Positions 37,746 to 64,000 of a stretch of 64,000 bases of DNA are shown here, one piece after another. The notes beneath the pieces are model-generated. The model ran no database searches and was not told where the DNA came from. It saw only the letters and a list, made by a program, of their open reading frames with translations. The stretch lies in assembly GCA_964350815.1 (NCBI GenBank), contig CAYGKW010000001.1:156120-220119 (forward strand), read 5' to 3'. Each line of letters starts with the position of its first letter. Positions within the stretch are counted from its first letter, which is position 1. This DNA comes from an uncultured Rhizobiaceae bacterium. GTDB taxonomy: Bacteria > Pseudomonadota > Alphaproteobacteria > UBA7879 > VGCX01. A program made the translations under genes and the position numbers.

Positions 37746-37779
37746 TAATTATCTTTTAAAGACTAAAAATAATGGACTG

Positions 37780-44898: not shown

Positions 44899-44919
44899 TT
44901 AACCTATCTTAGCCTTTGT

Positions 44920-47037: not shown

Positions 47038-47242
47038 GATCACCCCCCTCTTTAACAGTCGTATTATTTTCAATAAAATTCATTAAGTCCGACAATCGAT
47101 ACTTTGCTAATCGCCCCACCTTGACCATCGGCAACCCATAACGTTTGTTACAAGCCCATACGGCCAAAGTACCTTCTGTTGTTCCTAAAAGTTCAGCTGC
47201 TTCTTTCCGATTGAGAAGCTTATTAGTTTGTTCTATTTTCAT
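47030..47242 (-). CDS. alpA: AlpA-family transcriptional regulator / excisionase (Phage_AlpA HTH)
   Basis: 70 aa, LLNRKEAAELLGTTEGTLAVWACNKRYGLPMVKVGRLAKYRLSDL, the classic prophage CP4-57 AlpA fold. Confidence 0.75.
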   Translation of the reverse strand: MKIEQTNKLLNRKEAAELLGTTEGTLAVWACNKRYGLPMVKVGRLAKYRLSDLMNFIENNTTVKEGGDHE

Positions 47243-47310
47243 AGGCTTTATTCCTCTTAAAGTTAAAACTACCTATGTTAATAATCATTCTGAATTGTTG
47301 AAAAAAGACC

Positions 47311-47324
47311 GTTCGCTAGCGAAC
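47311..47324. promoter_or_regulatory. 14-bp perfect palindrome GTTCGCTAGCGAAC upstream of alpA (candidate operator)
   Basis: Perfect dyad about 70 bp upstream of the alpA start codon, in an AT-rich intergenic region. Confidence 0.25.
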
Positions 47325-47630
47325 CTACCTAAAAATTTTAGAGGTTGGACTAGATAAGTTACCTGGAGGTTGTTTGTATTGGCGAAATAAGCAGCAGAGG
47401 TAGCAAATATAAATAAGAAAAGTTATGGATTTTTGTGCTAAAGTAACAGGATGAGTAGTAGTAGAAGTTAGCATTAGCCATCTTCAGTGATTCTTAATTA
47501 TTAAAAAGTTCACAGACAGCAATTTTACCACTTCTTGAAAGAAGTGAATTCAGATTCACTTTTTGTTTTTCTAGTGACAATTGAAGCTTTTGAGGGAACT
47601 GTGTATTTTTGTTAACTCTTAGTTCCTTTA

Positions 47631-48626
47631 TCAAGGCCAACCAAAAAAATAACCTCTATTTTTGGTTAGCCAATTTTCAATTTCAATAAGCTTCTCAATA
47701 ATTTTTTTGGAGGGAATACCTATATGAATTTCTTTATCTTTCCCTTTCTCGTGTTCATTAATCCATTTTATAATGGTCTTGATGCCCTGCTCTTCTGAAA
47801 TTAAATGTTTATCCCCACTATCTTTCAATTTTTCATAAATTGCAGTTGCTGCTTCGGTTTTATTCTTATAGTTATTTTTATTTTCATCCCAATGCTTAAT
47901 TGCAAATTCATTTGATTTTTGAAATTTGTTATTCCATCGTTTTTGGAACCCTTTCTTTCTTGATTTTAGCTCCTTCCAAATCAGAGCAATTCTTTGATTA
48001 GACATAGTATTATAATCTTCAAAAAAAGTTTTAGGTTCAGAAAATTTTCCATGGCGCGTCCAGGAATTATATGAATTACAATGTTCTATCGGTGACCATG
48101 AAGTTTGATTATTAAACTCTTGATAGGCTTTTGAAGCAACTTTTATCCAACTCACTTGATGCATATTAATTTTTAACGAATATTCAGAATTATGCACGGT
48201 GTTTTTTTGGATAGATATATACTCCCCTAGGGATATAAGAAAGATGACAGGAAAGATATCCTTTAACATTAAATCAGTCCAACCTTCATCTTTTAGGTTT
48301 AAAAAAAATTCCTCTTTATTCCATTTATAATATAAATTAAATACATCGAAAAAATCAGGATTCTTAGTTTCTGTACATCTTTGAAAGTGAACTTCATTTC
48401 TAATATTTCTCAATTTAGAAAGTATTCCCTCTTGATTTGTATCAATTAGATTTTCCAAAAAATAAGCTAAGTTTAATATTTCTTCTGTAGAAAATCTTCT
48501 TTGCTTAAAATACTCATTAACATGCCAGAGTTCATGTTGAAAAGGTAGATTATAATCTTCTAATAATGATTTATAATTCTCACCTAGGAGTTCTGAAATA
48601 ACCTCTTGGTATGATTTAGTTTTCAT
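47631..48626 (-). CDS. Hypothetical protein (island cargo, unknown function)
   Basis: 331 aa, W/Y/K-rich, no recognisable motif. Its start overlaps the integrase stop (ATGA). Confidence 0.5.
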   Translation of the reverse strand: MKTKSYQEVISELLGENYKSLLEDYNLPFQHELWHVNEYFKQRRFSTEEILNLAYFLENLIDTNQEGILSKLRNIRNEVHFQRCTETKNPDFFDVFNLYYKWNKEEFFLNLKDEGWTDLMLKDIFPVIFLISLGEYISIQKNTVHNSEYSLKINMHQVSWIKVASKAYQEFNNQTSWSPIEHCNSYNSWTRHGKFSEPKTFFEDYNTMSNQRIALIWKELKSRKKGFQKRWNNKFQKSNEFAIKHWDENKNNYKNKTEAATAIYEKLKDSGDKHLISEEQGIKTIIKWINEHEKGKDKEIHIGIPSKKIIEKLIEIENWLTKNRGYFFGWP

Positions 48627-49798
48627 TTTGACCTACCTTCCTCAGTCACATTCATAAGCATTGCGCTGGTGGCACGGTTAACTGATTCCCTTACTGGATC
48701 AATATTTAATCGAGCATAAATGGCTGTTGCTTGTTGTGTTTTGTGTCCTAAAGATTTCCCAATGACATAGCTGTTGGCTCCAGTGGCCGCTTGCCAGCTC
48801 CCTAATGTTCTTCGTAAATCATGCAATCTTAAGTCTGTCAGATTTGCTTCTTCTAATATTCTTTTCCAGACACGCTTTGGTTCTTCTAAGTGTCCTGACT
48901 GGCTAGTTTTACTGGGAAATACCCAATCATTTTCTTTATAGATATGGCGTTGACGAAGAATTTTGATAATGTCAGACGATAATGGAATAAGATGCGATTC
49001 CCCATTCTTTGTTTCTGGTATGTTCCAAGTCTCCTTATTAAGGTCCACATCTTGCCAACGCATACTTAAGACATTTCCCTTGCGAGCCCCTGTTAAAAGA
49101 CACACCATAAAAAAGTCTGTAAATAATTTATTGGGTTCTTTTGCCAGAGCTTGAAAGAAACGTGATAGTTCTTCTCCTTGTAAAAATCTTTCGCGACTTT
49201 TTTCTTTAAACTTCTTAATACCTTCGACAGGTGATTTTCCATCCCATCCCCAATCCATGGCTTTATTAAACATAACCCCTAAAAGAGCCAACATACGATT
49301 TGCAGCATAAACTCCATTTACCTTTCCTACATTTGAATGGAGTGCTTCAAAGTCAGCTTTATGAAAACTAGAAATCTTTCTTTTCTTTAAATGAGATAAA
49401 TAAAGGCGATAAATATTTTCATCATTCTTCCAAGACTTTTTATGAAGCTTTGCATGTCCCTCTAGGTATCTTTCAAAAAGCTCCCCAAAAGTTAACTCTG
49501 CTTTTAATTTTGATTTCTCACGATTAGGATTTTTGCCTAGAGAAATTTGTGAATTTATACTTGAAGCTTGTCCACGTGCATTTTCAACAGACAGATCAGG
49601 ATAATACCCCAACATAATACGTTCAGGCCGACCTTTAACCTTTCGGTAGACATAAAAAGTTTTTGTTCCTTTGCTTGTAACGGAAATAATAAGAGCACGT
49701 ACTTTTGTATCATAATAATAAAATCTCTTCCCTTGTGGTGGTAAAGGAAGAACCTCCAAAGCTTTCTTAGTAAAGTTAATTTTGTTATCAGTCTTCAT
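48623..49798 (-). CDS. int: Tyrosine site-specific integrase (phage/P4-type)
   Basis: 391 aa. C-terminal catalytic box ...HDLRRTLGSWQAATGANSYVIGKSLGHKTQQATAIYARL (R..HxxR..Y). N-terminal arm-binding-like domain. Adjacent to attR. Confidence 0.9.
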   Translation of the reverse strand: MKTDNKINFTKKALEVLPLPPQGKRFYYYDTKVRALIISVTSKGTKTFYVYRKVKGRPERIMLGYYPDLSVENARGQASSINSQISLGKNPNREKSKLKAELTFGELFERYLEGHAKLHKKSWKNDENIYRLYLSHLKKRKISSFHKADFEALHSNVGKVNGVYAANRMLALLGVMFNKAMDWGWDGKSPVEGIKKFKEKSRERFLQGEELSRFFQALAKEPNKLFTDFFMVCLLTGARKGNVLSMRWQDVDLNKETWNIPETKNGESHLIPLSSDIIKILRQRHIYKENDWVFPSKTSQSGHLEEPKRVWKRILEEANLTDLRLHDLRRTLGSWQAATGANSYVIGKSLGHKTQQATAIYARLNIDPVRESVNRATSAMLMNVTEEGRSK

Positions 49799-49800
49799 TT

Positions 49801-49820
49801 GGTGCTACCCTGGTGCTACT
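49801..49820 (+). repeat. Inner 20-bp direct repeat GGTGCTACCCTGGTGCTACT (copy 2)
   Basis: Identical to 35823..35842. Begins 3 nt upstream of the integrase ATG (minus strand). Confidence 0.5.
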
Positions 49821-49938
49821 CTCTAGGTTAAATTTAGTTAATTTCAGTTGACTTTAGTAAAGAGTGGAATACCATAAAATATAAGGCTGGTAAAGAGAAA
49901 TTAAACTTTGTTAAATTTGAGAAAATGTATGACTTTAA

Positions 49939-49985
49939 GACTCTTAATCAGCGGGTCACAGGTTCGAATCCTGTAGTGCCCACCA
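49939..49985 (+). repeat. attR: 47-bp duplicate of the tRNA-Lys 3' half
   Basis: Exact copy of 35727..35773. Similarity to the tRNA stops abruptly 5' of the anticodon loop. Confidence 0.8.
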
Positions 49986-50168
49986 TTCAAATTAAAATTT
50001 GTCAGTCTATTCTAGAACTATTGGTAAAAGAGAGAGACATCAATGAAAAACCAATTTCTAAAATTTATATTTTTGATATTTTTCACCACTGGATTTTTCC
50101 ATAGCACAGATGCCAAAAACAACTGCAACAATAGCCTTCCAATAAACTTAGATAAAATAAGAGTATAA

Positions 50169-51203
50169 TATAATCTACAAGCCTTTGCCGTTGGTTTTGT
50201 TGACATTAAAAATATTAACACTTGGGTTATTAGTAATGATACTCCAAGGAGTAAACCCAGACTTAAAAGCAAATGGCTTTTTGCCTCTAACACAAAACCG
50301 ATGACAGCCCTACTTATTGCAAAATTGGTGGAACAAGGTAAACTTACTTGGTCATCAAAAATCAAAGATATCTTTCCTGAGCTTTCAAATCAATCTCTTG
50401 CAGAGTTCAATGAAATCACAGTTGAACAGCTTCTGTCACATTCAGCAGGGCTGGCTAAAGATAGCCCTGGTATATTTGAATCTCTCGAAAACTGGCCAGG
50501 ATATATTAAACATATTGATACAATGAACGCGCACATTTTAGAAAATAAAAACCGACCCCTTACAGATCAACGATTAGATGTTCTGGCAGATTTTGGAAAG
50601 AAAAAACTTAAACACCCCAAAAATGAATTTCATTATTCAAATGTTGGATATGTTATTTTGGGGGCAATTATAGAAAAGGTGACCGGCCTTAGTTATGAAA
50701 CAGCGATGACCAAGCTTTTATTTAAACCTTTAGGAATAGACTCAGCTGAATTCAAACTTTCTGATGACTCTGTCCCTCCTACTAAACTTAATGGGCATTA
50801 CTTTACAAATCAACCTAGGCAAAAAGTTATGCTACTTGCTTTATGAATCCAGCGGGTGGGGTTTATATTGCAATAAATGATTGGGCTTTTTTCATCCAAG
50901 AACTTATTAATGGGCTTGCAGGTAAAAGTACTTACTTGAAAAAAGAAACTTATAAAAAAGTTATTTACACCGGTTATTAATGACAGGACACTAACACACA
51001 AAATTATTGATGGAGAATTATCCCATCTTGGAACAGATCTTTTATCAACTTCTATTTCAAAAATAGACATCAAAAAGAAAACTGGGGTCTTGTTTGTCAT
51101 AAACAGAGGGTTTAATTATTCTCTTCCCCCCAGTCAGTATAAACAGACCCCAGTGTTTAAAGCTTTTAATGAGACAAAGTTACTGCCATTTCATGAATTA
51201 TAA
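50169..51203 (+). pseudogene. Beta-lactamase / PBP4*-family serine hydrolase pseudogene (frameshifted, no start codon)
   Basis: SxxK motif in FASNTKPMTA (about 50275..50300). Reading continues through frameshifts near 50846 and 50980 (NPAGGVYIAINDW..., then ...KKTGVLFVINRGFNYSL). No ATG upstream in frame after the stop at 50166. Confidence 0.5.
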
Positions 51204-51334
51204 AACATTATGCTTCTTAACTATCAATATCTGAGTCCATTTGTTGAAAATCCACCACCTTCGTTTACTAGAAAAAAACCGGGGCCACCGGCTTTTTATC
51301 TACATTGAACTTTAATGGAATCTCATGACAGTGT

Positions 51335-51703
51335 TTAAGGCACTTTCTTAAAGAACCACTTAGCTGACTTAACGTCTCTTTTGTGAGAAAGCATAAAGTC
51401 AATGGTATCCCCTTTTTTATCAATGGCCCTATAGAGATATTTCCACTGACCTTTAACTTTGATATACGTTTCATCGATTCTCCAGGAAAATCCTATAGGC
51501 TGACTATACCAACGAAGTTTTTTTCAAACTCAGGCGCATATCTCTGAATCCAACGGTAGATAGTTGTATGATCAACTTTAACACCCCATTCTGACATCAT
51601 TTCAGATAATTGACTAACTCAAAGGATATCTCAAATACCATCTCATACACTGCAAGATAACTTCTGGAACAAAATGTCGCCACTTAAAGGCCATTGGCTT
51701 CAT
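51335..51703 (-). pseudogene. IS6-family (IS26-like) transposase remnant: N-terminal half only, with an internal stop and a frameshift
   Basis: Minus-strand translation gives MKPMAFKWRHFVPEVILQCMRWYLRYPLS*, then ..MMSEWGVKVDHTTIYRWIQRYAPEFEK and IDETYIKVKGQWKYLYRAIDKKGDTIDFMLSHKRDVKSAK. These are collinear with the IS26 Tnp N-terminal half. No intact IRs were found. Confidence 0.6.
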
Positions 51704-52068
51704 AAACAAATCCCCTATTTATGATTAGATCCTTAGATCTTACCTCATTAATCTTTTTTTGCAACAGACCCATGAAACGGATAGATAGATAGATACATAA
51801 AAAAAGGATGCCATGCATAAGCAAACAAAAATAACTTTGGAAGACGCAATCGCGGAGAAGATATCTTTTACAGAATCAAGACTATTTTTGATAGAACCTT
51901 CATTTCTAGGATTTGGAAAAATCAAAAAATTGAAGCGAAGCTGATTGCTAATATACTGAATAAAATGACAAGCCTTAGTATATCAATAACGCAATAATAT
52001 CCCAAACCTTTGGAAATATTGTCCTTCAACCGTTTTTTGATTTACAACACAAAGCAAAGCCAAAAAAG

Positions 52069-52200
52069 ATGCTTTAGGATTCAGTAGCGTTTAATTTTAT
52101 AGTTGACATCTTAATAGCAAGGCATAGAATTAGCTATGATTTTTAAGGAGACAGGTGATGAGTAATTTATCAAAATTTAGGAAAGAACTAAAAAACTTTT
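52069..52200 (+). repeat. About 130-bp leader repeat (copy 1): the promoter plus the first codons of the GT-C gene, duplicated at 62050..62185
   Basis: About 85% identity between the two copies, including TTGACA-N16-TAGAAT and the ATGATGAGTAATTT(A/G)TCAAAATTTAGG start region. Confidence 0.6.
52103..52130 (+). promoter_or_regulatory. Sigma70-like promoter (TTGACA-16 nt-TAGAAT) upstream of the polysaccharide locus
   Basis: Near-consensus -35 and -10 hexamers, 25 bp before the ATG at 52155. A TTGATA/TAGAAT counterpart is conserved in the duplicate at 62090-62117. Confidence 0.4.
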
Positions 52201-53825
52201 TTGCGTTTATGATAACTAAGACGATTAAAAATGTGAAAACGTGGAATAGTTATGGGATTATAAACTCTCCCCTGTTTTGGATATTGGGTTTATACATTTT
52301 TATGTATCTTCCACAATGTTTTATCATGCTTGAAGACATGAACATTGTTAGAGCCTTTGAGGTAGATCCAGGCTCTATTCTTGACGCTATTAATAAGTTA
52401 TTTAAAGGACCTTATTATTACAGCATGTACAACGGCTACCACTCATATTACTATGGCTGGACATTCTTTAGTATAAATTTTTTCGTGATTTTGCCCATAA
52501 AGGTACTTTTTTCCATATTCAACATTACAAGTCCTGAAACCATAACATTTGTGGTCCGCTTTGTGTTATTTTTGATTGGCTTTGGATCGGTTTTTGCTTT
52601 TTATAATCTCGTTAAGAAAGCTACGGGAAAAACCTTTGTTGCCGCTTTTTTAAGCCTTTTTATAGTTGTGTCGACAGTAGCATCCAAAGGATATTATTTT
52701 ATACACCCTGAGACGACAGGTGTTCTATTTTCTATTACTGGCTGTTTTGCACTTTTAGAATTTATAAGTCAGAAAAAAAACCAAAACCAATGGTTTATAT
52801 TTGGTCTAACAGCTTTGGTTTTATCAGCATTGTCAAAACAGATATTTCTTATTATTTCTTTTCCCTTGTTAGCACTATTTTTATATTTTCGGGCGCAAAC
52901 CCAAAACAAGAGTGTTTTAGCCTTTCTAAAAACGAACCAGTTTAAAAATAATTTTTTCTTTACATGCACCTGGTCACTCTTACTTTTATTCATGGTACAT
53001 CCTTACGCATTTATTGCGCCATACAAATTTATAAAATCTCAGTTAGATACTATTATTTATCATACAAGTGTCGAACATACTTTTTCCTTAACAGAGACTA
53101 TGAAAATATGGTGGATAACTATAATTCATAGGATGCCTTTATATTCTTTTACCGTAATTTCAGCGCCCTTATGCTTATTTGTATGTTATAAAAGTCGCCA
53201 AATATATAAAAAATCCAAAATTTTGTATACGACTAATCTTTTAAGCATAATAGGCATATTATTTGTTGTTAGCTATATTGAAAGAGCTTTTCCAGGCCAA
53301 GTCTTTTATTTGTATCCTTTATTGCCATATGTATTATTAAACATTGGTGCAATCATATGGTATGTATTGATGGTTATCAGTAGGCCTGTGCGGTTTATAA
53401 TAACCTGTTTTATTTTTTGCATTGGTTTTCTGTTTTTAGCATTTAATTATATGTCTACAAATCAAATATTAAAAAAACGCTTAGATTATAAGGATTCAAT
53501 GGTTTATAAAGTATACAACTATATTCGTAGTGAATTGCCAAAAAATTCACGAATTGCACATGATCATGTTATCGCAGTGCCTTTAAGTGATGGATATAAA
53601 TCTTGTCACTATTGGAACTCCTGCGCTTCTTTAAATGCAATTAAAGATTATGATCCTGATTATATTATTTTCAATAAGGAGTTTAATATTAATGGTAAGG
53701 CACATAATAACACAGAAAATCTCAAGAAGTATATTTTACGACATGATTATAAAATTAGGAAAGTTTTAAATATGAAAGAAAACCCAACGGTCAGTATTTC
53801 AATTTATGAAAGGCCCAAAAATTAA
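52155..53825 (+). CDS. Polytopic membrane glycosyltransferase, GT-C fold (ArnT/PMT-like), putative
   Basis: 556 aa with 11 or more predicted TM helices, an acidic ED pair in the first loop (MLEDMN) and a soluble C-terminal domain. Confidence 0.45.
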   Translation: MMSNLSKFRKELKNFFAFMITKTIKNVKTWNSYGIINSPLFWILGLYIFMYLPQCFIMLEDMNIVRAFEVDPGSILDAINKLFKGPYYYSMYNGYHSYYYGWTFFSINFFVILPIKVLFSIFNITSPETITFVVRFVLFLIGFGSVFAFYNLVKKATGKTFVAAFLSLFIVVSTVASKGYYFIHPETTGVLFSITGCFALLEFISQKKNQNQWFIFGLTALVLSALSKQIFLIISFPLLALFLYFRAQTQNKSVLAFLKTNQFKNNFFFTCTWSLLLLFMVHPYAFIAPYKFIKSQLDTIIYHTSVEHTFSLTETMKIWWITIIHRMPLYSFTVISAPLCLFVCYKSRQIYKKSKILYTTNLLSIIGILFVVSYIERAFPGQVFYLYPLLPYVLLNIGAIIWYVLMVISRPVRFIITCFIFCIGFLFLAFNYMSTNQILKKRLDYKDSMVYKVYNYIRSELPKNSRIAHDHVIAVPLSDGYKSCHYWNSCASLNAIKDYDPDYIIFNKEFNINGKAHNNTENLKKYILRHDYKIRKVLNMKENPTVSISIYERPKN

Positions 53826-53828
53826 AGT

Positions 53829-54827
53829 TTAAAAATTAATTCGTTCCTCTTCTATTACTAAAGGTCTTTTCCTTACCTGAGCATGAATGCTAACCACATA
53901 CTCTCCCATTAGACCCAAAAAGAAAAGATTAATACCGCTTAAGAAGAACATTCCTACTATGAGGGTTGGAATACCTGCTACAGTAGCAGGATTAAAAAAG
54001 ACAGCTACAAACAATTGGTACAAGCCGTAAAGGAAACTAAGAAAAGAAATGAGGAGACCTCCAAACAGGCAAGCGCGGATAGGCATTTGACTATGACCAA
54101 CAAGTCCATTTAAACTAGTATTTATCATATCAAAAAAGCTTGTTTTTGACTCACCTTTTTCACGAACACCCCACCGATAGGAAACCCCGATTGTTTTAAA
54201 CCCACATTCTGCAATCATACCGCGTATATAAGGCTCACAATCATCAAATTGACGGAGGACTTCTACAACTTTTTTATCTATGAGCTGATACTCACCTGCA
54301 TCATGTGGGATATCATATCTAGCCATTCGATTTACTAGGCGATAATGAAGCTTGCGCAGTGTTTCAATGATGGCAGATTCCGAACGGTTTATCCGTTGGC
54401 CATAAACAATATCATATCCCTTTTCCCAATACTTAATAAATTGGGGTAGAACCTCTACAGGATCTTGTAAATCAACAGGAAGCATTGGGACCACAGCATC
54501 TCCTCTAGAGTTCAAAAGGCCATTGAACATAGACCTGAAAACTCCAAAATTACGTGAGTTTAAAATGACTTTTACATTTTTGTCTTTTTTCGCGATGGCA
54601 CGCAAAGCATCAACTGTATGATCTTTAGATCCATTATCGCAAAAAATATGTTCATAATCATAATCTAACAAGGTGTTTTCAAAAATTTGTTTAATTGCCA
54701 TATAGCATTTATTCACAGAATCTTCTTCATTATAAACAGGGGTTATAATGCTTATAAGAGTCCTTTTTATGGCCGTCCTTTTATTTTTTTTAAACTGGTT
54801 TTTTACAGTGTTTTTAGCGCTTGACAT
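53829..54827 (-). CDS. GT2 polyprenyl-phosphate glycosyltransferase (ArnC/GtrB/DPM1-like)
   Basis: N-terminal GT-A domain (ISIITPVYNEEDSV, DNGSKD, DLQD) plus two C-terminal TM helices; 332 aa. Confidence 0.7.
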   Translation of the reverse strand: MSSAKNTVKNQFKKNKRTAIKRTLISIITPVYNEEDSVNKCYMAIKQIFENTLLDYDYEHIFCDNGSKDHTVDALRAIAKKDKNVKVILNSRNFGVFRSMFNGLLNSRGDAVVPMLPVDLQDPVEVLPQFIKYWEKGYDIVYGQRINRSESAIIETLRKLHYRLVNRMARYDIPHDAGEYQLIDKKVVEVLRQFDDCEPYIRGMIAECGFKTIGVSYRWGVREKGESKTSFFDMINTSLNGLVGHSQMPIRACLFGGLLISFLSFLYGLYQLFVAVFFNPATVAGIPTLIVGMFFLSGINLFFLGLMGEYVVSIHAQVRKRPLVIEEERINF

Positions 54828-54982
54828 ATTTTAAGTACCTTAAATATAAAAATTCTAAAAAATTTGTAACATAAAAAGTATAAAAAATAAAGACTTGCTC
54901 TTCTAAAAAATTATTTGTCATTTTCCTTAGTTTTATGCTAGTAGATATGGTTATAGTTAAAATTTTACATACATAATATATT

Positions 54983-55378
54983 ATGACTGAAACAAATAAA
55001 TGGATTATTAGTACATTTTTGATATTACTTGCTGTAATACTAATTGCAGGAAGTCAGATAATTCTTAAGACACAAATGGAAAAAGTCCCCACTTTTCCCT
55101 CTTTATTGAACGAGCGGGCTTTGTGGGTATTAAGCCTATTCTTAAATCCTTCGGTTGTTCTTGTTTTTATATGTGTTTTTTTATCTGGTTTAATTTGGAT
55201 AATTGCTCTAACAAATGTACCGTTATCTTATGCCTACCCTTTTACAAGTTTAACATTGCCTCTGATATTATTATTAAGTTATGTATTTTTAGAAGAAACA
55301 CTGGGGTTATCTCAAGTGTTAGGAACGCTACTAATTGTTAGTGGTGTTATTATTACGTCAACAAAAATAGTAGGATAA
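54983..55378 (+). CDS. Small 4-TM membrane protein (ArnE/ArnF/GtrA-like flippase candidate, SMR/DMT-like)
   Basis: 131 aa with four hydrophobic helices, adjacent to the GT2 and GT-C genes. Confidence 0.45.
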   Translation: MTETNKWIISTFLILLAVILIAGSQIILKTQMEKVPTFPSLLNERALWVLSLFLNPSVVLVFICVFLSGLIWIIALTNVPLSYAYPFTSLTLPLILLLSYVFLEETLGLSQVLGTLLIVSGVIITSTKIVG

Positions 55379-55381
55379 GGT

Positions 55382-56170
55382 ATGAAAGCAGTTATTCTTG
55401 CAGGTGGCTTTGGGACAAGATTGGGAGATATAACAAGAGAAATCCCGAAACCAATGGTGAGAGTTGGGGGCAAGCCTATTCTATGGCATGTTATGAAAAC
55501 TTATGCGACTTATGGTATAAAAGACTTTATTGTATGTTTGGGTTATAAAGGGCACGTTATTAAACAATATTTTGCAAATTATTATTTGAATAATTCTGAT
55601 GTTGTTTTTAACCTTGGAACAAATGAGGTTAAATATTTACGGAATTCAGGCAATGACTGGCGAGTTTCTCTAATCGAAACTGGGCCTGACTCACAAACTG
55701 GTGGTCGATTGGGCCGTTTACGCAATATGCTGAAAAATGAGGAATATTTTTGCTTTACGTACGGAGATGCCGTAAGTGATTTAGATATTGGTGCGACATT
55801 AGAATTTCATAAAAAAAGGAATGCGATTGCTACCGTAACAGGTGTCCGTCCGCAAGGACGTTTTGGAGCGCTAAAAATCTCAGATACAGATCGTGTAGTA
55901 AGTTTTCAAGAAAAGTTGTTGGGTGACGGAAGCTATGTAAATGGTGGGTTTTTCGTACTATCAAATAAAGTCTTTAATTATATAAATGGAGATAATTGTA
56001 TTTGGGAGCGGGGACCTTTGCCACAGCTGGCTAAGGAAAATAATCTGCACGTTTACAAGCATGATGGCTTTTGGCAATGTATGGATACCTTGCGGGATAA
56101 AGAAGAGCTTGAAAAACTTTGGGATGAAGGAGATGTGCCATGGATTTCTGGCATAAAAAAAGGGTCTTAG
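55382..56170 (+). CDS. rfbF: Glucose-1-phosphate cytidylyltransferase
   Basis: Near-collinear match to Salmonella RfbF (MKAVILAGGFGTRL..., GGRLGRLRN, GFWQCMDTLRDK). 262 aa. Confidence 0.93.
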   Translation: MKAVILAGGFGTRLGDITREIPKPMVRVGGKPILWHVMKTYATYGIKDFIVCLGYKGHVIKQYFANYYLNNSDVVFNLGTNEVKYLRNSGNDWRVSLIETGPDSQTGGRLGRLRNMLKNEEYFCFTYGDAVSDLDIGATLEFHKKRNAIATVTGVRPQGRFGALKISDTDRVVSFQEKLLGDGSYVNGGFFVLSNKVFNYINGDNCIWERGPLPQLAKENNLHVYKHDGFWQCMDTLRDKEELEKLWDEGDVPWISGIKKGS

Positions 56171-57207
56171 TATTAGGCCACACAGGTTTTAAAGGTGGAT
56201 GGTTGAGTGAGTGGCTTATTAAGTCAGGAGCACAACTTTGTGGCTACTCTCTAGAGCCATATACCAATCAGTCTTTATTTGAAGACTTGGAATTAAAAGA
56301 AAAGATGGAAAGTCATATTTCTGATGTTCGTGATGCTAAAAAGATAGCCGAGGTTGTTCAAGAATTTCAACCTGAAATCATTTTTCATATGGCCTCTCAA
56401 CCTATTGTATCTATTGGTTTTAATGATCCTGTTGGAACATATGAAACAAATATCATGGGAACAGTAAATGTGCTGGAGTCAATCCGTCACCTTGAAAGTA
56501 TCCGTTCTGTTGTAGTGGTAACAAGTGATAAATGTTACGAAAATAAAGGAAATAACACGGCTTTTTCAGAGACAGATCGTCTAGGTGGATTGGACCCCTA
56601 TAGCAATAGTAAGGCTTGCCAAGAACTGGTTGTGCAATCTTACAGAGATTCGTTTTTTTTCAAGGAGAGAGGTGTACGCATTGCCACCGCACGAGCTGGT
56701 AATGTTATAGGTGGGGGAGATTGGGCATTAAACAGATTGATTCCAGACTTAGTACGCGCATTTAAAAATAACGAAAGTGCTGTAATTCGCAACCCTTCTT
56801 ATACACGTCCCTGGCAGCATGTCTTGGATCCATTAAATGGCTATATAATGTTAGCTAAAAAATTGTATGAAGAAGATGGTTTTGACTACGCGGATAGCTG
56901 GAACTTCGGCCCTGATGAGACACACTGTATTCCTGTATCAGAAGTTGTGAAAATCGCTACTGAAACATGGTCAAATGATGCAAAATGGCATCACGAAAAA
57001 GTTGAGTTAGGTAAAGAATGTTCTTTATTACGGTTAAACAGTTTGAAAGCCAAAAACAAATTAGGCTGGCATCCCTTATTTGACGTTTATACTGCAATTA
57101 AAATGAGTATGGACTGGTATAAAATTTCTTCACAAAAAGATAATATTAAGCTTTTAACAACGTATCAAATTAAAAAAATTGAAAATTTACTGTCAATTAA
57201 CATATAA
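56140..57207 (+). CDS. rfbG: CDP-glucose 4,6-dehydratase
   Basis: RfbG-like along its full length (KRVLVLGHTGFKGGWLSEWL, YSNSKAC, RPWQHVLDPL). 355 aa. Confidence 0.92.
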   Translation: MDFWHKKRVLVLGHTGFKGGWLSEWLIKSGAQLCGYSLEPYTNQSLFEDLELKEKMESHISDVRDAKKIAEVVQEFQPEIIFHMASQPIVSIGFNDPVGTYETNIMGTVNVLESIRHLESIRSVVVVTSDKCYENKGNNTAFSETDRLGGLDPYSNSKACQELVVQSYRDSFFFKERGVRIATARAGNVIGGGDWALNRLIPDLVRAFKNNESAVIRNPSYTRPWQHVLDPLNGYIMLAKKLYEEDGFDYADSWNFGPDETHCIPVSEVVKIATETWSNDAKWHHEKVELGKECSLLRLNSLKAKNKLGWHPLFDVYTAIKMSMDWYKISSQKDNIKLLTTYQIKKIENLLSINI

Positions 57208-57237
57208 TAAAATTGGTTTTTTATAAAGGATTAAATT

Positions 57238-58347
57238 ATGAAAGAAATTTCTTCTGCTGGTCCATGGATTGAACAAAAAGAATTAGATTATGTCTCTGAT
57301 GCTTGTCAAAACGGGTGGTATAACAACTGGCATGAATATCTAGATCGTTTTGAAGCAGCTTTGTGTAAAGCAACTAAAAATAAATATTGCCTTTTAACCT
57401 CCAGTTGTACTGGTGCACTTCATATTTCAATGTTGGCTTTGGGTGTAGGGCCTGGGGATGAGGTGATTGTACCAGAAGTTACTTGGGTTGCGACAGCAGC
57501 TTGTGTAAAGTATGTAGGGGCAACTCCTGTTTTTGTTGATGTAGAGAAAGATACTTGGTGTATGGATCCTGAAAAAGTAAAGGCGGCGATAACCGCTAAA
57601 ACCAAAGCAATTATTCCCGTCCATATGTATGGGCACCCAGCAGATATGGACGCAATTAATGAAATTGCAAAAGAACATGGTTTAATGGTGATCGAAGATG
57701 CGGCACCATCTATTGGCTCAAAATACAAAGGTCGACCTACTGGCAGTCTGGGGTTGGCAGGGGCTTTTAGTTTTCAAGGCGCAAAGCCAATCACAACAGG
57801 GGAAGGTGGAGCATTGCTTACTAATGATGATAATTTTTATGACCGTGCTTATTATTATTGGGACCATTGTCGTGATAAGGAAAAAGTTTTATTCAATACT
57901 GACATTGGCGTTAAATATAAAATGTCGAACATCCAGGCTGCTCTGGGTTTGGGACAAATTGAACGTTTGGACGAAATTATTGAAAAGCGTCGTCAGATTT
58001 TTTTCTGGTATCAAAAACGTTTGTGCGATATCCAAGGGTTGTGCTTAAATGTAGAACGGGAAGGTTGCTATAATAATTATTATGTTCCAACACTCATATT
58101 GGATGGTCAGTTTAATATTTCTACAGAAGAATTGATGTTGGGTATGAATAACAAAGGGGTTCGTAATCGTCCTTTTTTCCGTCCGATAAGTAAGTTTCCG
58201 ATGTTTGCTCCATCTGAAACTCCTGTTGCAGATTTTCTAAGTCAAAACGGTATAAATCTACCAGCTGCTGCGTCATTAATTGAAAGCGATGTTGAGTATT
58301 CTTGTAATGTTATACGAGAGCTTTTAGAACAAAACTATAAATCATAG
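57238..58347 (+). CDS. DegT/DnrJ/EryC1/StrS-family PLP-dependent sugar aminotransferase
   Basis: 369 aa. The active-site lysine is present in SFQGAKPITTGEGG. Confidence 0.8.
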   Translation: MKEISSAGPWIEQKELDYVSDACQNGWYNNWHEYLDRFEAALCKATKNKYCLLTSSCTGALHISMLALGVGPGDEVIVPEVTWVATAACVKYVGATPVFVDVEKDTWCMDPEKVKAAITAKTKAIIPVHMYGHPADMDAINEIAKEHGLMVIEDAAPSIGSKYKGRPTGSLGLAGAFSFQGAKPITTGEGGALLTNDDNFYDRAYYYWDHCRDKEKVLFNTDIGVKYKMSNIQAALGLGQIERLDEIIEKRRQIFFWYQKRLCDIQGLCLNVEREGCYNNYYVPTLILDGQFNISTEELMLGMNNKGVRNRPFFRPISKFPMFAPSETPVADFLSQNGINLPAAASLIESDVEYSCNVIRELLEQNYKS

Positions 58348-58357
58348 GTTATGTTAA

Positions 58358-59017
58358 ATGACTGAGTTTAAAGCCCAACTTATTCATACCTTCAAAGCTT
58401 TGAAATATGGAAAATCAGGCAAAGTTTTGATAAGGTCATGTACCTCACCTATTTGTCTACTTGTTCCTTTTGTTCAAGATGATATTTCTGATGCTAATAA
58501 AATAGCAATATTATCGAAATGGCGCCTTGATAACATTCACGGCTTTCCAAGTATATTTAATATAACTGATAAAGGTACTCGTAAATGGGCGCAGACAGAG
58601 CTTATTAATCGTGAGGACCGTATTCTCTTTTTTGTCACTGATGAAAAAGGGGAACCGCTTGGTCATGTAGGTCTTTCTTCTTTTGATTATGCAAATGAAA
58701 CTTGTGAAATTGATAACATCGTCCGCGGAGAAAAAGATGGGCCAAAAGGTATTATGCAACAAGCTGTTAATGTTATGTTAGATTGGTCCTATGAAACTTT
58801 AAAGCCAAAAAAAATTCACCTCAGAACTTTTAATGACAATCCACGCGCCTTGGCTTTGTATTACCGTCTTAAATTTAAGCCAGTGGAGCTCATTCCCTTA
58901 ACAAGGACGGAGGCACCCGGTGTTATAGAATGGAAAAAATCTAATGAAAATGATATTATTGATCGCTTTTATATTGTAATGTGCCATAAAAATAATACTT
59001 ATAAATTAAGGAGATAA
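58358..59017 (+). CDS. GNAT-family N-acyltransferase (probable amino-sugar N-acylase)
   Basis: 219 aa. Acetyl-CoA-binding-like segment IVRGEKDGPKGIMQQAVNVMLDWSYETL and a GNAT fold pattern. Confidence 0.45.
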   Translation: MTEFKAQLIHTFKALKYGKSGKVLIRSCTSPICLLVPFVQDDISDANKIAILSKWRLDNIHGFPSIFNITDKGTRKWAQTELINREDRILFFVTDEKGEPLGHVGLSSFDYANETCEIDNIVRGEKDGPKGIMQQAVNVMLDWSYETLKPKKIHLRTFNDNPRALALYYRLKFKPVELIPLTRTEAPGVIEWKKSNENDIIDRFYIVMCHKNNTYKLRR

Positions 59018-59019
59018 TA

Positions 59020-60246
59020 ATGAAAAATGATTTAGTCTATAAAAAAGAAGATTTTATACATGTACCCTATGGTATGACAGTTCATGGTGATGAAGAAGAA
59101 CGTGCTGTGGTTGAAGTTATACGTACATCAACTCAGATGGGTAAAAATGTGTGCGAAATGGAAAGTCGGATAGCCAAAATGTTTAATAAAAAACATGGGA
59201 TTATGGTGAATTCTGGATCTTCCGCACTGTACCTTGCTATTGAAGGATTGAATCTCCCTAAAAAAAGTGAAGTTATTACTCCAGCATTGACTTTTTCAAC
59301 GACTGTAGGCTGTATAGTAAAAAACGATTTAATCCCGTCTTTTATTGATTGTGAAACAGATACATACTGTATTGATGTTAATAAGATTGAGGATGCTATT
59401 ACAGAAAAAACTAGTGCAATGCTAGTTCCAAATCTATTGGGCAACATGCCTGAATGGGATAAGCTGGCTGCAATTGCAAAAAAATATAACCTAAAAGTAA
59501 TTGAAGATTCAGCCGATACGGTAGGTGGAGAATTTAAAGAAGGATCCAGTGGTGCTTATTCTGATATTTCAATTACTAGTTTTTATGGGTCACACGTGAT
59601 TAATTGTGCAGGAAATGGGGGCATGCTTTGTATAAATGATGATGATCTTAAAGACCGTATAAAACTTCTTCGTTCTTGGGGTCGAAGTTCGTCACTTTAC
59701 GTTGAATCTGAAGCAATTGAGAATCGATTTGATATCAATATTGACGGTGTAGATTACGATAAGAAATTTGTTTTTGAAGCAATAGGTTATAATCTTGAGC
59801 CTAATGAAATGGGTGCGGCATTTGGTTTGGTCCAACTGAATAAATTGCAAAAAAATATTGATCTACGTATTAAGTACTTTAATGCGCAATATGAATTTTT
59901 TAAAAAATACGAAGAGTATTTTATATTGCCACGTCAGTGTAAAAACACACGCACTGGTTGGCTTGCTTTTCCATTGATTGTTAAAGAAAATTCTCCATTC
60001 ACACGTCAAGAAATGCAAATCTTTTTAGAAAGACGCAATATCCAAACTCGTGTTGTTTTTACAGGAAATATTTTGCGTCAACCTGGTTTCAAAAACATTG
60101 AATGCCGCGGTGTTGCTTCTGACTTTACAGGAGCGGACCGTATCATGAATGGAGGAATTCTTCTTGCCTGCCATCATGGTTTAACAGATAAAATGTTAGA
60201 GCATGTGCATGAAAGTTTTAATTCATTCATAAACCAATTAAAATAA
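59020..60246 (+). CDS. DegT-family sugar 3-dehydratase (RfbH/E1/ColD-like; His replaces the Schiff-base Lys)
   Basis: C-terminus TRVVFTGNILRQPGFKNIECR...TGADRIMNGG is collinear with the Salmonella RfbH tail. The active site reads SFYGSHVINCAGNGG (His, no Lys). The Cys-rich 2Fe-2S insertion of RfbH (CYCAPGCDNTC) is absent. Confidence 0.65.
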   Translation: MKNDLVYKKEDFIHVPYGMTVHGDEEERAVVEVIRTSTQMGKNVCEMESRIAKMFNKKHGIMVNSGSSALYLAIEGLNLPKKSEVITPALTFSTTVGCIVKNDLIPSFIDCETDTYCIDVNKIEDAITEKTSAMLVPNLLGNMPEWDKLAAIAKKYNLKVIEDSADTVGGEFKEGSSGAYSDISITSFYGSHVINCAGNGGMLCINDDDLKDRIKLLRSWGRSSSLYVESEAIENRFDINIDGVDYDKKFVFEAIGYNLEPNEMGAAFGLVQLNKLQKNIDLRIKYFNAQYEFFKKYEEYFILPRQCKNTRTGWLAFPLIVKENSPFTRQEMQIFLERRNIQTRVVFTGNILRQPGFKNIECRGVASDFTGADRIMNGGILLACHHGLTDKMLEHVHESFNSFINQLK

Positions 60247-60257
60247 AAAACAGTTCT

Positions 60258-61055
60258 ATGTTCAAATCTTCTGATATTAGAAAAACAATTTTGAAAATGG
60301 GCTATTCTGGTGCGACTGCACATTTGGGTTGTGCGTTATCAATTGTAGAAATATTAGCCGTACTCTACCGCAACTATCTAAATTTAAATGATAAAACCCC
60401 GAATTCACCTGATCGTAATTATTTAATTTTAAGCAAAGGACATGGTGTTATGGCTTTATATGCATGTCTTTTCGAACTTGGGTGGGTATCAGAGCAACAT
60501 ATTGCAGATTATTTTAAAAATGGTACATCTTTAAAAGGCTTAGGTGATGCGCATGTTCCAGGAGTAGAGGTGACTGCGGGCTCTCTGGGACATGGTTTGT
60601 CGGTAGGTGTTGGCATGGCTATGGCAGCTAAACGTAGTAAAACAGGACAAAAAGCTTTTGCTATTGTGGGTGATGGGGAGATGAATGAAGGTACCATGTG
60701 GGAGGCACTTTTATTTGCCTCCCACCATAAGCTTGATAATCTTTGTATAATTGTGGATGAAAATAAATATCAGGCAATGGGTATGACAGATGATGTTTTA
60801 GACCTGAAGAATTTAGCCGATAAGTTTTCAGCTTTTGGGTGCGAAACTTTAAAATGTGATGGCCATAATGAACAAGCTCTAAACACTGTTATTAATAAAT
60901 TGATATCGGTTGAGGATGGAAAACCTAAAGCCATTATTGCTAGGACAGTAAAAGGTAAAGGCATAAGTTTTATGGAAAACAATAATATCTGGCATTACAA
61001 AAAATTGAATAAAGGCACGTATGAAAAAGCATTAGAGGAGGTTACAAAAGAATGA
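60258..61055 (+). CDS. Transketolase, N-terminal (ThDP-binding) subunit
   Basis: 265 aa with GHGxxAL (SKGHGVMALYA) and the ThDP motif GDGEMNEG. Confidence 0.85.
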   Translation: MFKSSDIRKTILKMGYSGATAHLGCALSIVEILAVLYRNYLNLNDKTPNSPDRNYLILSKGHGVMALYACLFELGWVSEQHIADYFKNGTSLKGLGDAHVPGVEVTAGSLGHGLSVGVGMAMAAKRSKTGQKAFAIVGDGEMNEGTMWEALLFASHHKLDNLCIIVDENKYQAMGMTDDVLDLKNLADKFSAFGCETLKCDGHNEQALNTVINKLISVEDGKPKAIIARTVKGKGISFMENNNIWHYKKLNKGTYEKALEEVTKE

Positions 61056-61963
61056 GAGAACGCTTTTCAAATCTTTTAACCAAAGCCGCAAAGGAAGATG
61101 AACGCATCTTGTTATTAACAGGGGATCACGGCTATGCTTTGTTTGATGAATTTCGAAGCGCTTACCCAGATCGTTTTATAAATTGTGGGATTGCAGAACA
61201 AAATATGCTTGGTGTAGCTGCCGGTCTAGCAAAATCGGGCTTTCGGCCAATCGTTTATGGTTTAGCTGCCTTTGTTCCTATACGTGTTTTAGAACAGATA
61301 AAAATTGATATTTGCTATGAAAAATTGCCTATAATAATTATTGGGGATGGTGCAGGGGTCGTCTATGGACACTTAGGAACTAGTCACCAATGCAATGAAG
61401 ATGTTGCAGCCCTAAGGGCTGTTCCAAATATAAATATTTATACTCCGAGTGACCGTGCTGAATTGAACTATTGCTTTCACCATATGCTTGAATCGGCCAC
61501 CCCCTCTTATCTTCGTTTTGGTAAATCTGATCTTGGGGATGTTCACCAAGAAATTCCTAATGCACCTCAAGGTGATCCTATTGAGGTTATAAATAATAAA
61601 TCTGAAAATGCAATTATTGCTTCTGGATCTATGGTAAAACCATCCTTATCAGTATCAGAAAAAATAGGTAATATTGACGTTTGGAGTATGCCTATTATTA
61701 CACCAACTAATAAAGAAAAAATAATGGGAATTCTAACTCGTTATCAAAATGTTTATACTATGGAAGAGCATTCTATTCATGGAGGCATTGGGAGCCTTAT
61801 TTCTGAAATATCTGCGCAAATGGAAAACCCCGTACGTGTAATTTCATTTGGTATTGAAAATAAGTTTTCAGATTATTGTGGAGATTATTACTATCTAATG
61901 CAAACACATGGCTTGGATGTTAAAAGTCTAATCGATAAAATTCAAAGTCTTTCTTTAAAATAA
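61052..61963 (+). CDS. Transketolase, C-terminal (pyrimidine-binding) subunit
   Basis: 303 aa. GIAEQNMLGVAAGLA and GxxGxSHQ match the transketolase Pyr domain and C-terminus. Overlaps the upstream subunit by 4 nt. Confidence 0.85.
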   Translation: MRERFSNLLTKAAKEDERILLLTGDHGYALFDEFRSAYPDRFINCGIAEQNMLGVAAGLAKSGFRPIVYGLAAFVPIRVLEQIKIDICYEKLPIIIIGDGAGVVYGHLGTSHQCNEDVAALRAVPNINIYTPSDRAELNYCFHHMLESATPSYLRFGKSDLGDVHQEIPNAPQGDPIEVINNKSENAIIASGSMVKPSLSVSEKIGNIDVWSMPIITPTNKEKIMGILTRYQNVYTMEEHSIHGGIGSLISEISAQMENPVRVISFGIENKFSDYCGDYYYLMQTHGLDVKSLIDKIQSLSLK

Positions 61964-62049
61964 AGTATAGAGAAATTTTATATAAATATTTTTTATTACA
62001 CCTAACTTTATAATCTTTACTTTACAGAAAATACATGTACGGGAAAAAA

Positions 62050-62185
62050 GGTGCTTTAGGGTTCAGGAGCGTTTAATTTTTATGTTGATATTTTAATAGA
62101 AAAGCATAGAATAGGCTATGCTATTAAGAAAATAGATGATGAGTAATTTGTCAAAATTTAGGGAAGACTATAAAAATTTAAATAA
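62050..62185 (+). repeat. Leader repeat (copy 2): diverged duplicate of the promoter and 5' stub of the 52155 gene
   Basis: Encodes MMSNLSKFREDYKNL..., then diverges and terminates after about 32 codons. Confidence 0.6.
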
Positions 62186-62271
62186 TAAATGTGAGAATAC
62201 TTATATCTCTAATCTATGAGAAATAAGTAAACTCAATTTAAATTAGTTATCTGGTACAGCCCCAAACTTAA

Positions 62272-62850
62272 TTATATCAGCCCAAGTTCGTATTCGATGG
62301 CATTGCAAAGCATTTGCCCAATCATAATATGCATTTCTTGAATTCGTGCTGTTGTATTTGAGGGAACGATCAATAGAGGGCCTTTAATATCTTTGATATC
62401 TCCACCATCTTTACCACTTAAGGCACCATATTTAATACCCATTTTATCGGCTTGTTCAAAAGCCTTGATAACATTTGGGCTTTTGCCAGATGTGGTTATT
62501 CCAATAATAAAATCTTCGGGTTTTGCAAGGGCCTCGATTTGTCTTGAAAATAAAAATTCAAAACCAAAATCATTTCCAATTGCTGTTAAAGCAGACGTAT
62601 CTGTACTTAAAGAAATTGCTGCAATAGCCACACGGTTTTCTTTATAGCGAACAGTTAATTCTGTTGCTAGGTGCTGTGCGTCTGATGCAGATCCGCCATT
62701 CCCCATAAGAATTATTTTTCCGCCTTTTTTAAGAGCAGATACACAAGTGTTAACCAATGAATAAAAACTATCTTCGACAGCTTTTTCAGTATCATTTAAA
62801 ACTTTCTGGTGTTCTAAAAATTCTGATTTGTAAAATTCTTTAAGATTCAT
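62272..62850 (-). CDS. gmhA: Phosphoheptose isomerase (SIS domain)
   Basis: 192 aa, GKIILMGNGGSASDAQHLATEL... typical of GmhA. Confidence 0.85.
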   Translation of the reverse strand: MNLKEFYKSEFLEHQKVLNDTEKAVEDSFYSLVNTCVSALKKGGKIILMGNGGSASDAQHLATELTVRYKENRVAIAAISLSTDTSALTAIGNDFGFEFLFSRQIEALAKPEDFIIGITTSGKSPNVIKAFEQADKMGIKYGALSGKDGGDIKDIKGPLLIVPSNTTARIQEMHIMIGQMLCNAIEYELGLI

Positions 62851-63608
62851 TTTTCACCTATTTTATTTTTAGTTGCGTTAAAATATTTAGGGCCAAGAGT
62901 TTTAATGTCACCAAATTCTTTAACCTTGCCTTTTTCCAAAATAAGTATTTTATTACACATTTCATAAACAAGTTCTTTGCTGTGGGAAACAAAAAGGAGA
63001 ATACTGGAATTTTCCACAAGTTCCATCATTTTTTTTCTGGCTTTTTCAATAAATTTTTTATCCCCAGCCCCAAAAAACTCATCAATCAACAAAATGTCAG
63101 AACTCATAAAGCTAATGACAGAAAAAGCCAAACGTACGCGCATTCCAGAAGAATAGGTGCGAACAGGTATATTTACAAAATTTCCCAACTCTGAAAATTC
63201 TATGATTTTATCCATGCGGGTTTCTATTTGTTTTTTCGTAGCCCCCAAGACATAGGACATACAAAATATATTTTGAATGCCTGTTAATTCATCATTCATT
63301 CCCAAGGTAATATCCAATAATGTTGAGATTTTTCCTTCCACCTTTATTTGGCCTGAAGACGGTTCATAAATACCTGCAACTGTCCTTAGGAATGTTGACT
63401 TTCCTGCACCATTTCCGCCCACGATTGCCACACGGTCACCATGGTTAAACTCTAGAGTAATATCATTCAAAGCATGGATTGAAACATCTTTTCCAGATTC
63501 AATCCTACCGCCTGTTGCAGCTTTAAGTAATTTCAAACGAAAATCGTTTGCACTTACATCATAAAGTGGATAGTGGAGGTTGACCTTATCTAGAATAATT
63601 TTTGACAT
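62847..63608 (-). CDS. Polysaccharide-export ABC transporter ATP-binding protein (KpsT/Wzt-like)
   Basis: Walker A GGNGAGKST, signature YSSGMRVRLAF and Walker B ILLIDE. 253 aa, with no extra C-terminal domain. Confidence 0.8.
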   Translation of the reverse strand: MSKIILDKVNLHYPLYDVSANDFRLKLLKAATGGRIESGKDVSIHALNDITLEFNHGDRVAIVGGNGAGKSTFLRTVAGIYEPSSGQIKVEGKISTLLDITLGMNDELTGIQNIFCMSYVLGATKKQIETRMDKIIEFSELGNFVNIPVRTYSSGMRVRLAFSVISFMSSDILLIDEFFGAGDKKFIEKARKKMMELVENSSILLFVSHSKELVYEMCNKILILEKGKVKEFGDIKTLGPKYFNATKNKIGEK

Positions 63609-63612
63609 TTAA

Positions 63613-64000
63613 TTATATCCAATAAATAACTCTGTGCCTAAACCTAGAAAACACCATAAAAGCAAAAAGTGAAATTATAAAGGTTAAAGCAGCAGCTAAA
63701 GATAGTTCAATAATTCCTATTGGTTGGCCTAACAAAGGCTTTCTAAGAAGATCAAGAAAAATGGCAAAGGGGTTTAAGTAAACTAAATAATATTTACTTC
63801 CAAACTGAGAGGCATCCCATAAAACCGGAGTAACCAGCATTCCTACTGACATTAAAGATTTTACTAAAGGTCCAAAGTCTCTGAACCTTGCAACAACAAA
63901 ACTTAAAATCAAACTTACGCCTATTGCTGCCACCAAAGTAAGTATCAACGCTGGAAGAAAAAAAAGGGTATAAAAATTTGGCCAGTTGCCCACAAGAATC
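63613..64000 (-). CDS. ABC-2 type polysaccharide-export permease (KpsM/Wzm-like), partial; continues beyond the window end
   Basis: Hydrophobic ABC-2 C-terminal region immediately upstream of the ATPase gene. The ORF is open to the window edge. Confidence 0.6.
   Translation of the reverse strand, partial: ILVGNWPNFYTLFFLPALILTLVAAIGVSLILSFVVARFRDFGPLVKSLMSVGMLVTPVLWDASQFGSKYYLVYLNPFAIFLDLLRKPLLGQPIGIIELSLAAALTFIISLFAFMVFSRFRHRVIYWI

Follow-up and report, generated by a model that had tools for sequence, protein, structure and literature searches.

Three-component periplasmic glycosylation, as described for GT136 systems (PMC11127046), combines a lipid-phosphate sugar synthase, a flippase, and a GT-C transferase. 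Comparable sets are GtrA/GtrB/GtrC of Shigella and Salmonella and ArnC/ArnE-F/ArnT, and the gtr operons of Salmonella sit by tRNA genes and phage integration sites (PMC3688519). In this study, we analyzed a polysaccharide locus in a 64,000-nucleotide stretch of contig CAYGKW010000001.1 (the window, to which all positions refer unless stated otherwise), which belongs to an uncultured marine alphaproteobacterial lineage. The locus is bracketed by two direct copies, A and B, of a 138-bp repeat (Table 1). Based on sequence comparisons, the genes between the repeats are a Gtr/Arn-like three-component module together with a cytidine diphosphate (CDP)-hexose pathway. Similar to the described systems, the locus has a GT2 synthase, a small flippase candidate, and a GT-C-fold transferase, and it appears to have been acquired horizontally near a tRNA gene and integrase-bearing DNA. 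In contrast, its GT-C protein belongs to an uncharacterized family that has neither a Pfam or NCBIfam model nor a PDB sequence match, and its sugar would come from its own eight-gene CDP-hexose pathway, including a split transketolase-like enzyme, rather than from a housekeeping uridine diphosphate (UDP)-sugar. Moreover, the three component genes do not form one operon, and the glycan segment contains no phage genes.

Gene remnants and insertion sequence (IS) debris occur at the edges of polysaccharide gene clusters such as O-antigen and capsule loci. The present locus resembles these cases in that a truncated gene start with its promoter lies at the boundary of an acquired locus, near a decayed IS. 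However, the remnant here does not derive from an unrelated earlier cassette; its homologue is one of the genes of the locus itself, which is why the two sequences bracket the locus as a direct repeat. A second point of comparison is the neighboring island, which is a textbook tRNA-linked island with a tRNA-Lys target, a 58-nt attachment (att) repeat, and a P4-type integrase, whereas the tRNA att sequence has no relationship to the 138-bp repeat, and the glycan segment has neither a right-end att nor an integrase of its own. Collectively, the evidence set out below favors the reading that copy B is probably the old, decaying 5′ end of a second GT-C gene copy, with the promoter, the leader, and about 14 codons left, within an acquired segment.

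The start-to-start distance of copies A and B is 9982 bp. The two copies are identical in 114 of 138 aligned columns (82.6%), with 24 differing columns and two gaps of one base each. An earlier reading of the sequence (the original prediction) had reported about 130 bp repeated at about 85% identity, and the alignment confirms this repeat. The local alignment score of A against B is 86, compared with no more than 23 for shuffles of A (n = 40, both window strands). A 28-nt core pattern matches the window exactly twice where no match is expected, and the repeat count within the 64-kb window is two. Furthermore, a contig from a separate assembly (Logan contig L002, run ERR3534985) matches 51649-62265 of the window at 100% identity and includes both copies. 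The left edge of the repeat is sharp, while the right edge fades near 52199/62179, and the longest run of identity is 13 nt. Identity is uneven along the repeat: 85% in the upstream block, 5/6 in the -35 hexamer, 6/6 in the -10 hexamer, 18/27 (67%) in the leader and Shine-Dalgarno region, which is the most diverged part, and 88% in the coding part. This pattern is suggestive, as a post hoc observation on few sites.

The two copies differ in their expression signals. The promoter of copy A, TTGACA-N16-TAGAAT (52103-52130), matches the consensus at 11/12 positions and is the best promoter-like site in the 14-kb region. In copy B, the corresponding sequence is TTGATA-N16-TAGAAT (62085-62112), with 10/12 matches. 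The earlier statement that a near-consensus promoter is retained in both copies thus holds for the -10 element, which is the same, while the -35 element of copy B is changed at one base. Copy A has the full set of expression signals and opens a 555-aa open reading frame (ORF). In contrast, copy B has a weakened -35 element, has lost its Shine-Dalgarno sequence, and opens an ORF of only 27 codons. In an ungapped, in-frame alignment, 10 of 14 residues of this stub are identical to the GT-C N-terminus, with two synonymous changes, and the similarity stops after codon 14-15. The stub had been described as 15 codons long; this agrees with the homologous part, but not with the ORF. Neither copy contains a match to the ops element GGCGGTAG of JUMPStart/ops leaders when one mismatch is allowed, and the sole match in an Rfam scan of 49900-64000 is the tRNA fragment at attR, with none in the repeat.

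On the right, the first conserved core gene is gmhA. Copy B had been placed upstream of gmhA; however, gmhA lies on the minus strand, so that copy B is 92 bp past the gmhA stop and convergent with the 3′ end of the gene. The unique spacer between them resembles nothing else in the window and nothing in the relatives (best score 18, shuffle range 15-20). A search of this spacer and of the 80-bp stretch that separates copy B from the last gene of the locus yielded neither a relic of the GT-C gene body nor any other match.

To place the locus in its genomic context, we compared the region with relatives found via the closest public GmhA proteins (86-95% identical). These represent seven lineages of uncultured marine Alphaproteobacteria, none of which is another strain of the species of the window. 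The core order RodA, tRNA-Lys, gmhA, and ABC transporter is common to all seven. In L037 (1962-1990) and L038 (10583-10604), only 22-29 bp separate tRNA-Lys from the gmhA stop, which represents the empty, ancestral site. In L028-L031, which share 91-94% nucleotide identity with the window, the gap holds about 590 bp with two small ORFs; in L035, it holds about 370 bp; in L033, L034, and L032, an S9 peptidase gene; and in L003, an S9 peptidase gene followed by a tRNA-Lys fragment and an integrase. Judged by these sequences, the tRNA-Lys-gmhA gap is an insertion hotspot, with at least four different contents in other lineages. No glycan genes lie between tRNA-Lys and gmhA in any of the seven lineages. 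The empty sites and the differing small contents elsewhere show the glycan segment to be an insertion specific to this lineage. On the left, the window ceases to resemble its relatives at tRNA-Lys, and on the right precisely at the gmhA stop (62272); neither break coincides with the repeats. Relative to the empty site, all 26.5 kb of 35774-62271 is extra DNA, comprising the integrase island, the IS6 and hydrolase pseudogenes, and the glycan segment. The presence of decayed mobile DNA just left of the locus (the IS6 pseudogene, the hydrolase fragment, and attR) further supports acquisition.

The repeat itself was not found outside the source genome. A sensitive blastn search (word size 7) with both copies, the spacer, and the left debris returned nothing meaningful from 34 related loci, and among the 41 fetched loci, the repeat occurs only in L002, which is the window's own contig and has the two known copies. 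The 28-nt core gave 0 matches in the genome collection, as did a two-block promoter pattern and a start-codon block in the metagenome and viral collections. The repeat is therefore not a common intergenic element, which is what would have refuted the original prediction.

The divergence of the copies indicates that the duplication is old. At four-fold degenerate sites of seven shared core genes, 21% of sites differ (931 sites) between the window and L028, its closest sampled relative, and the divergence of copies A and B is 17%. Taking these uncorrected distances at face value, the copies would have split at about the time these lineages diverged, or before it if copy A was under constraint; in the latter case, the duplication may be older than the arrival of the locus at this site.

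Based on these observations, we propose the following course of events. A segment of about 49986-62271 would have been acquired between tRNA-Lys and gmhA, with the remnant at its right edge. The second GT-C gene copy might have arisen by tandem duplication of slightly more than one unit, or by capture from a tandem or circular form; it might also have been a neighboring paralogue or orthologue that was formerly present. Its body would later have been deleted, which would have left the stub 92 bp from the gmhA stop. We infer both this order of events and the stub's lack of function. Several points weigh against this reading. Tandem duplication with deletion, a lost paralogue, and single-crossover insertion with deletion are indistinguishable, and the history is not reconstructable because the locus has no close relative (36% identity for the GT-C protein and 63% for a transketolase subunit, at best). 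No genome with a full-length parent of copy B, or with a close relative of the locus, was found in the searched collections, and further copies of the repeat may lie beyond the 64 kb examined. In addition, the -10 element of copy B is intact, and its upstream (85%) and coding (88%) parts are conserved above the leader, so copy B could still be under constraint.

Among the other explanations, a discrete 10-kb mobile element (approximate size) might have entered a resident GT-C gene start by site-specific or single-crossover (Campbell-type) integration, and the two copies would then be its ends, whether att-like sites or a terminal duplication. Integration of a circular molecule does leave direct repeats around accessory genes, and mobile debris and an integrase island adjoin the locus. 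Nevertheless, this explanation is unlikely. There is no recombinase gene between the repeats, nor anywhere in 49986-62271, and the copies share no identical core longer than 13 nt. The nearby integrase comes with a separate tRNA-Lys att pair that does not enclose the glycan segment, and no third att copy exists near 62271, where the best score (9) equals the shuffle mean. Furthermore, the body of the resident gene, which would be expected past copy B, is missing, with only 92 bp of unrelated DNA before gmhA, and the relatives have no GT-C gene at the site that could have served as a target.

The original prediction regarded the repeats as the footprint, or substrate, of homologous exchange of alternative glycan gene sets. 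In keeping with this, the locus is found within a variable region and is specific to the strain, a gene start forms part of the repeat, and the stub is conserved in frame, which fits a descendant of a homologous gene that once functioned. However, none of the seven lineages compared presents a different set of genes framed by these repeats; the relatives lack both the repeat and any glycan genes here, and searches of the genome, metagenome, and viral collections did not recover the repeat either. Variation is bounded by tRNA-Lys and the gmhA stop. If the promoter and 5′ end had served as one homology arm of a double crossover, a single copy would remain rather than two direct ones, whereas direct repeats fit a partial duplication or a single-crossover insertion. 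Identity of 13 nt is too short for efficient RecA-dependent exchange, and at 82.6% overall identity, the copies are now too diverged for efficient recombination. Moreover, the repeated promoter belongs to the GT-C gene alone. The proposed cassette replacement with locus swapping is thus unsupported, and we regard it as improbable. The related idea of a surface-antigen variation locus stands in part: the locus is a lineage-specific, horizontally acquired glycan unit at a variable spot and plausibly alters the surface glycan, without the swapping mechanism. The repeat can be seen as an ordinary scar in an old acquired segment, which advises caution against reading direct repeats at glycan loci as swapping devices.

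Alternatively, copy B might be functional, as a promoter co-regulated with the GT-C gene that yields a small peptide or an antisense RNA running into the convergent gmhA-ABC transporter operon, or through a palindrome that acts as the gmhA terminator. Its -10 element is intact, its -35 element keeps 5 of 6 bases, and its upstream block is 85% kept even though its translation signals are gone. From copy B to the window end, the plus strand yielded no terminator-like site. On the minus strand, copy B contains a terminator-like hairpin about 150 nt downstream of the gmhA stop, with a T-rich run on the gmhA strand, while the counterpart in copy A has a stem of only 5 bp. The predicted folding is stronger in copy B than in copy A (-8.5 kcal/mol, z -3.75, vs. 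-4.9 kcal/mol, z -0.55). However, with two sequences only, conservation is inseparable from chance, and promoter-like sites in the region show no excess over shuffles (70 vs. 58 ± 9). The hairpin has only three G-C pairs, no Rfam family matches, and the relatives run gmhA without the element. A residual or co-opted function of copy B is therefore unlikely, and an active role has little probability in our view. The more elaborate version, in which copy B is a live module that shares the control of the GT-C gene, convergent antisense transcription into the gmhA-ABC transporter operon damps heptose synthesis or glycan export once the GT-C enzyme is switched on, and the palindrome also serves as the gmhA terminator, is very unlikely. 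Should copy B prove active as a convergent promoter, it would neatly illustrate how a gene remnant can be co-opted for regulation.

Finally, an assembly artefact or chance similarity is scarcely credible, since the AT-rich region (about 33% G+C) does contain many short two-copy matches that are due to chance, but the shuffle scores, the 24 differing columns, which one sequence collapsed or doubled by assembly would not show, and the presence of both copies on a single contig of the second assembly exclude it.

Table 1. Features of the region around the bracketed glycan locus (window positions; att, attachment; PLP, pyridoxal phosphate; PMP, pyridoxamine phosphate; TPP, thiamine pyrophosphate)
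Feature	Position	Strand	Evidence or remark
tRNA-Lys	35698-35773		Island target
att repeat	35727-35784 and 49939-49996	attR +	58 nt, 93% identical; attR = 49939-49996, copy of tRNA-Lys 3′ end and flank
Genomic island	35774-49985		Bounded by att repeat
Polymorphic toxin, 2109 aa	37780-44587	-	Span given for toxin and immunity gene; DUF637 region, C-terminal Colicin-DNase/WHH nuclease
Toprim/AAA_25 primase-helicase-like gene	45091-47073	-	Within island
P4-type integrase	48623-49798	-	Within island
Serine-hydrolase (Beta-lactamase family) fragment	50301-50846	+	Probable pseudogene; PF00144, E 1.3e-26, profile positions 59-191 of 329
IS6/IS240-family transposase pseudogene	51341-51770	-	Stop codons, frameshifts, truncated after about residue 122
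Repeat copy A	52062-52199	+	Alignment
Copy A upstream block	from 52062	+	41 nt
Copy A -35	52103-52108	+	TTGACA
Copy A -10	52125-52130	+	TAGAAT
Copy A Shine-Dalgarno	52145-52150	+	AAGGAG
Copy A start codon	52158	+	ATG; first 14 codons of GT-C gene lie within copy A
GT-C-fold membrane glycosyltransferase, 555 aa	52158-53825	+	Fold search on AlphaFold model
GT2 polyprenyl-phosphate sugar synthase, GtrB/ArnC/PgfS-like, 332 aa	53829-54827	-	Pfam Glycos_transf_2, E 6.5e-25
Small EamA-type membrane protein, 131 aa	54983-55378	+	Pfam EamA; ArnE/ArnF-like, candidate flippase
RfbF, glucose-1-phosphate cytidylyltransferase	55382-56170	+	366 bits, equivalog cut-off 300
RfbG, CDP-glucose 4,6-dehydratase	56140-57207	+	456 bits, equivalog cut-off 278
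DegT-type aminotransferase	57238-58347	+	Family level
GNAT acetyltransferase	58358-59017	+	Family level
RfbH-like PLP/PMP enzyme	59020-60246	+	Family level
Split transketolase-like TPP enzyme, N- and C-terminal subunits	60258-61055 and 61052-61963	+	Family level; overlapping genes
Repeat copy B	62044-62179	+	Alignment
Copy B upstream block	from 62044	+	Counterpart of copy A block
Copy B -35	62085-62090	+	TTGATA
Hairpin in copy B	62103-62122	-	7-bp stem, then T-rich run; terminator-like; overlaps -10
Copy B -10	62107-62112	+	TAGAAT
Copy B degenerate Shine-Dalgarno	62126-62131	+	AAGAAA
Copy B start codons	62136-62141	+	ATGATG
Stub ORF	62136-62219	+	27 codons, MMSNLSKFREDYKNLNNKCENTYISNL and stop; opened by copy B ATGATG
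Unique spacer, copy B to gmhA stop	62180-62271	.	92 bp
gmhA (sedoheptulose-7-phosphate isomerase)	62272-62850	-	SIS_2 domain

The GT-C protein was placed by fold search because sequence searches gave no match: Pfam, NCBIfam, and phage tblastn searches as well as a profile search against PDB sequences were all negative. It has 33 homologues, a few of which carry PMT_2 or PMT domains, and its nearest relatives outside the source genome are at most 36% identical. Its AlphaFold model has a mean predicted local distance difference test (pLDDT) score of 83.8 and a predicted template-modeling (pTM) score of 0.84. In a Foldseek search of the PDB, the model matched ALG12, STT3, ALG9, DPY19, and AglB with E-values of 5e-8 to 6e-4; all seven matches at E ≤ 1e-3 are GT-C enzymes, with template-modeling (TM) scores of about 0.45-0.5. 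As modeled, the 555-aa protein has a GT-C fold, and its family is uncharacterized. Public annotations disagree on its start, giving either 555 aa from the ATG at 52158 or 538 aa from the ATG at 52209 (P0001, 17 codons inward). The long N-terminus (MSNLSKFRKELKNF...) that starts at 52158 is backed by the N-termini of 15 homologues (consensus MxN...), which have a similar length ahead of the first conserved block, and the Logan gene call also starts there. On sequence, the homologue N-termini thus favor the start at 52158.

Of the other two module components, the GT2 protein is assigned at the family level. It matches the NCBIfam models PgfS (3e-62) and ArnC (1e-36) over its full length, with both scores under the equivalog cut-offs. 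The small membrane protein exceeds the Pfam EamA cut-off (33.9 vs. 28.2 bits) and matches ArnF (6.9e-13) and ArnE (4.6e-7) of NCBIfam, again under the cut-offs. The GT2 gene lies on the minus strand, converging on the GT-C gene, and its end is 3 nt from the GT-C stop. The repeated promoter can therefore serve the GT-C gene only, and the biosynthetic operon (54983-61963) must depend on a separate promoter in the 155-bp divergent gap. The bracketed genes therefore form three transcription units, in contrast to the earlier description of 52155-61963 as a single unit.

In the predicted pathway, the CDP-hexose enzymes would produce a modified 6-deoxy or dideoxy, amino or branched sugar, as judged from their likely chemistry. 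The GT2 enzyme would place this sugar on polyprenyl phosphate, the small EamA protein, a candidate flippase, would move the lipid-linked sugar across the membrane, and the GT-C enzyme would transfer it to a periplasmic glycan. The closest homologues of the split transketolase-like enzyme are about 60% identical, with 63% as the best value for the last gene. This enzyme closes the CDP-hexose pathway and may add a two-carbon sugar branch. A distant GT-C homologue (L026) lies among GT2, GtrA-like, and nucleotide-sugar genes, and no bracketing repeats were found around the GT-C homologues in L026 and L027. The locus is of modest value as a self-contained decoration module whose GT-C family is uncharacterized and whose unusual CDP-sugar pathway includes a split transketolase-like enzyme. 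Its host belongs to an uncultured lineage of marine Alphaproteobacteria, and its site is a tRNA-Lys hotspot with clearly repeated insertions in this clade.

To the left of copy A, 49997-52061 has the overall appearance of decayed DNA. The IS6 pseudogene was detected by tblastn (E 1.7e-16) with an IS26 transposase query, and its translated fragment matches Pfam DDE_Tnp_IS240 (E 1.6e-22). An IS26-like terminal inverted-repeat-like sequence, GGTCTGTTGCAAAA, lies at 51770-51757, and 290 bp separate the end of the element from copy A. An IS6/IS26 composite transposon or translocatable unit was considered as the vehicle of the locus and rejected, as there are no intact flanking IS copies; near the right end, no second IS6 copy was found, and the only remnant in the region is truncated and frameshifted. 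Similarly, the glycan segment was rejected as a tRNA-integrated island in its own right, as it has no integrase of its own and no right-end att, and the att pair bounds the neighboring island only.

Within that island, a SUKH-1 (SMI1/KNR4) immunity-type gene follows the polymorphic toxin gene. A 23-nt motif, TTyGGTGCTACCCTGGTGCTACT, with tandem GGTGCTAC, occurs at 35820-35842 and 49798-49820, near both ends of the island. The same motif also lies beside tRNA-Lys in L035, L033, L032, and L003, which are relatives without the island. These motifs are probably arm-type integrase binding sites and remnants of past visits by the same island family. One of these relatives, L032 (GCA_905221625.1, CAJNDU010012703.1), is a 74-kb contig, from an assembly labeled Symbiodinium sp. 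KB8, that carries the gmhA / tRNA-Lys / RodA / MreBCD region; its sequence evidently comes from an associated alphaproteobacterium and not from the dinoflagellate.

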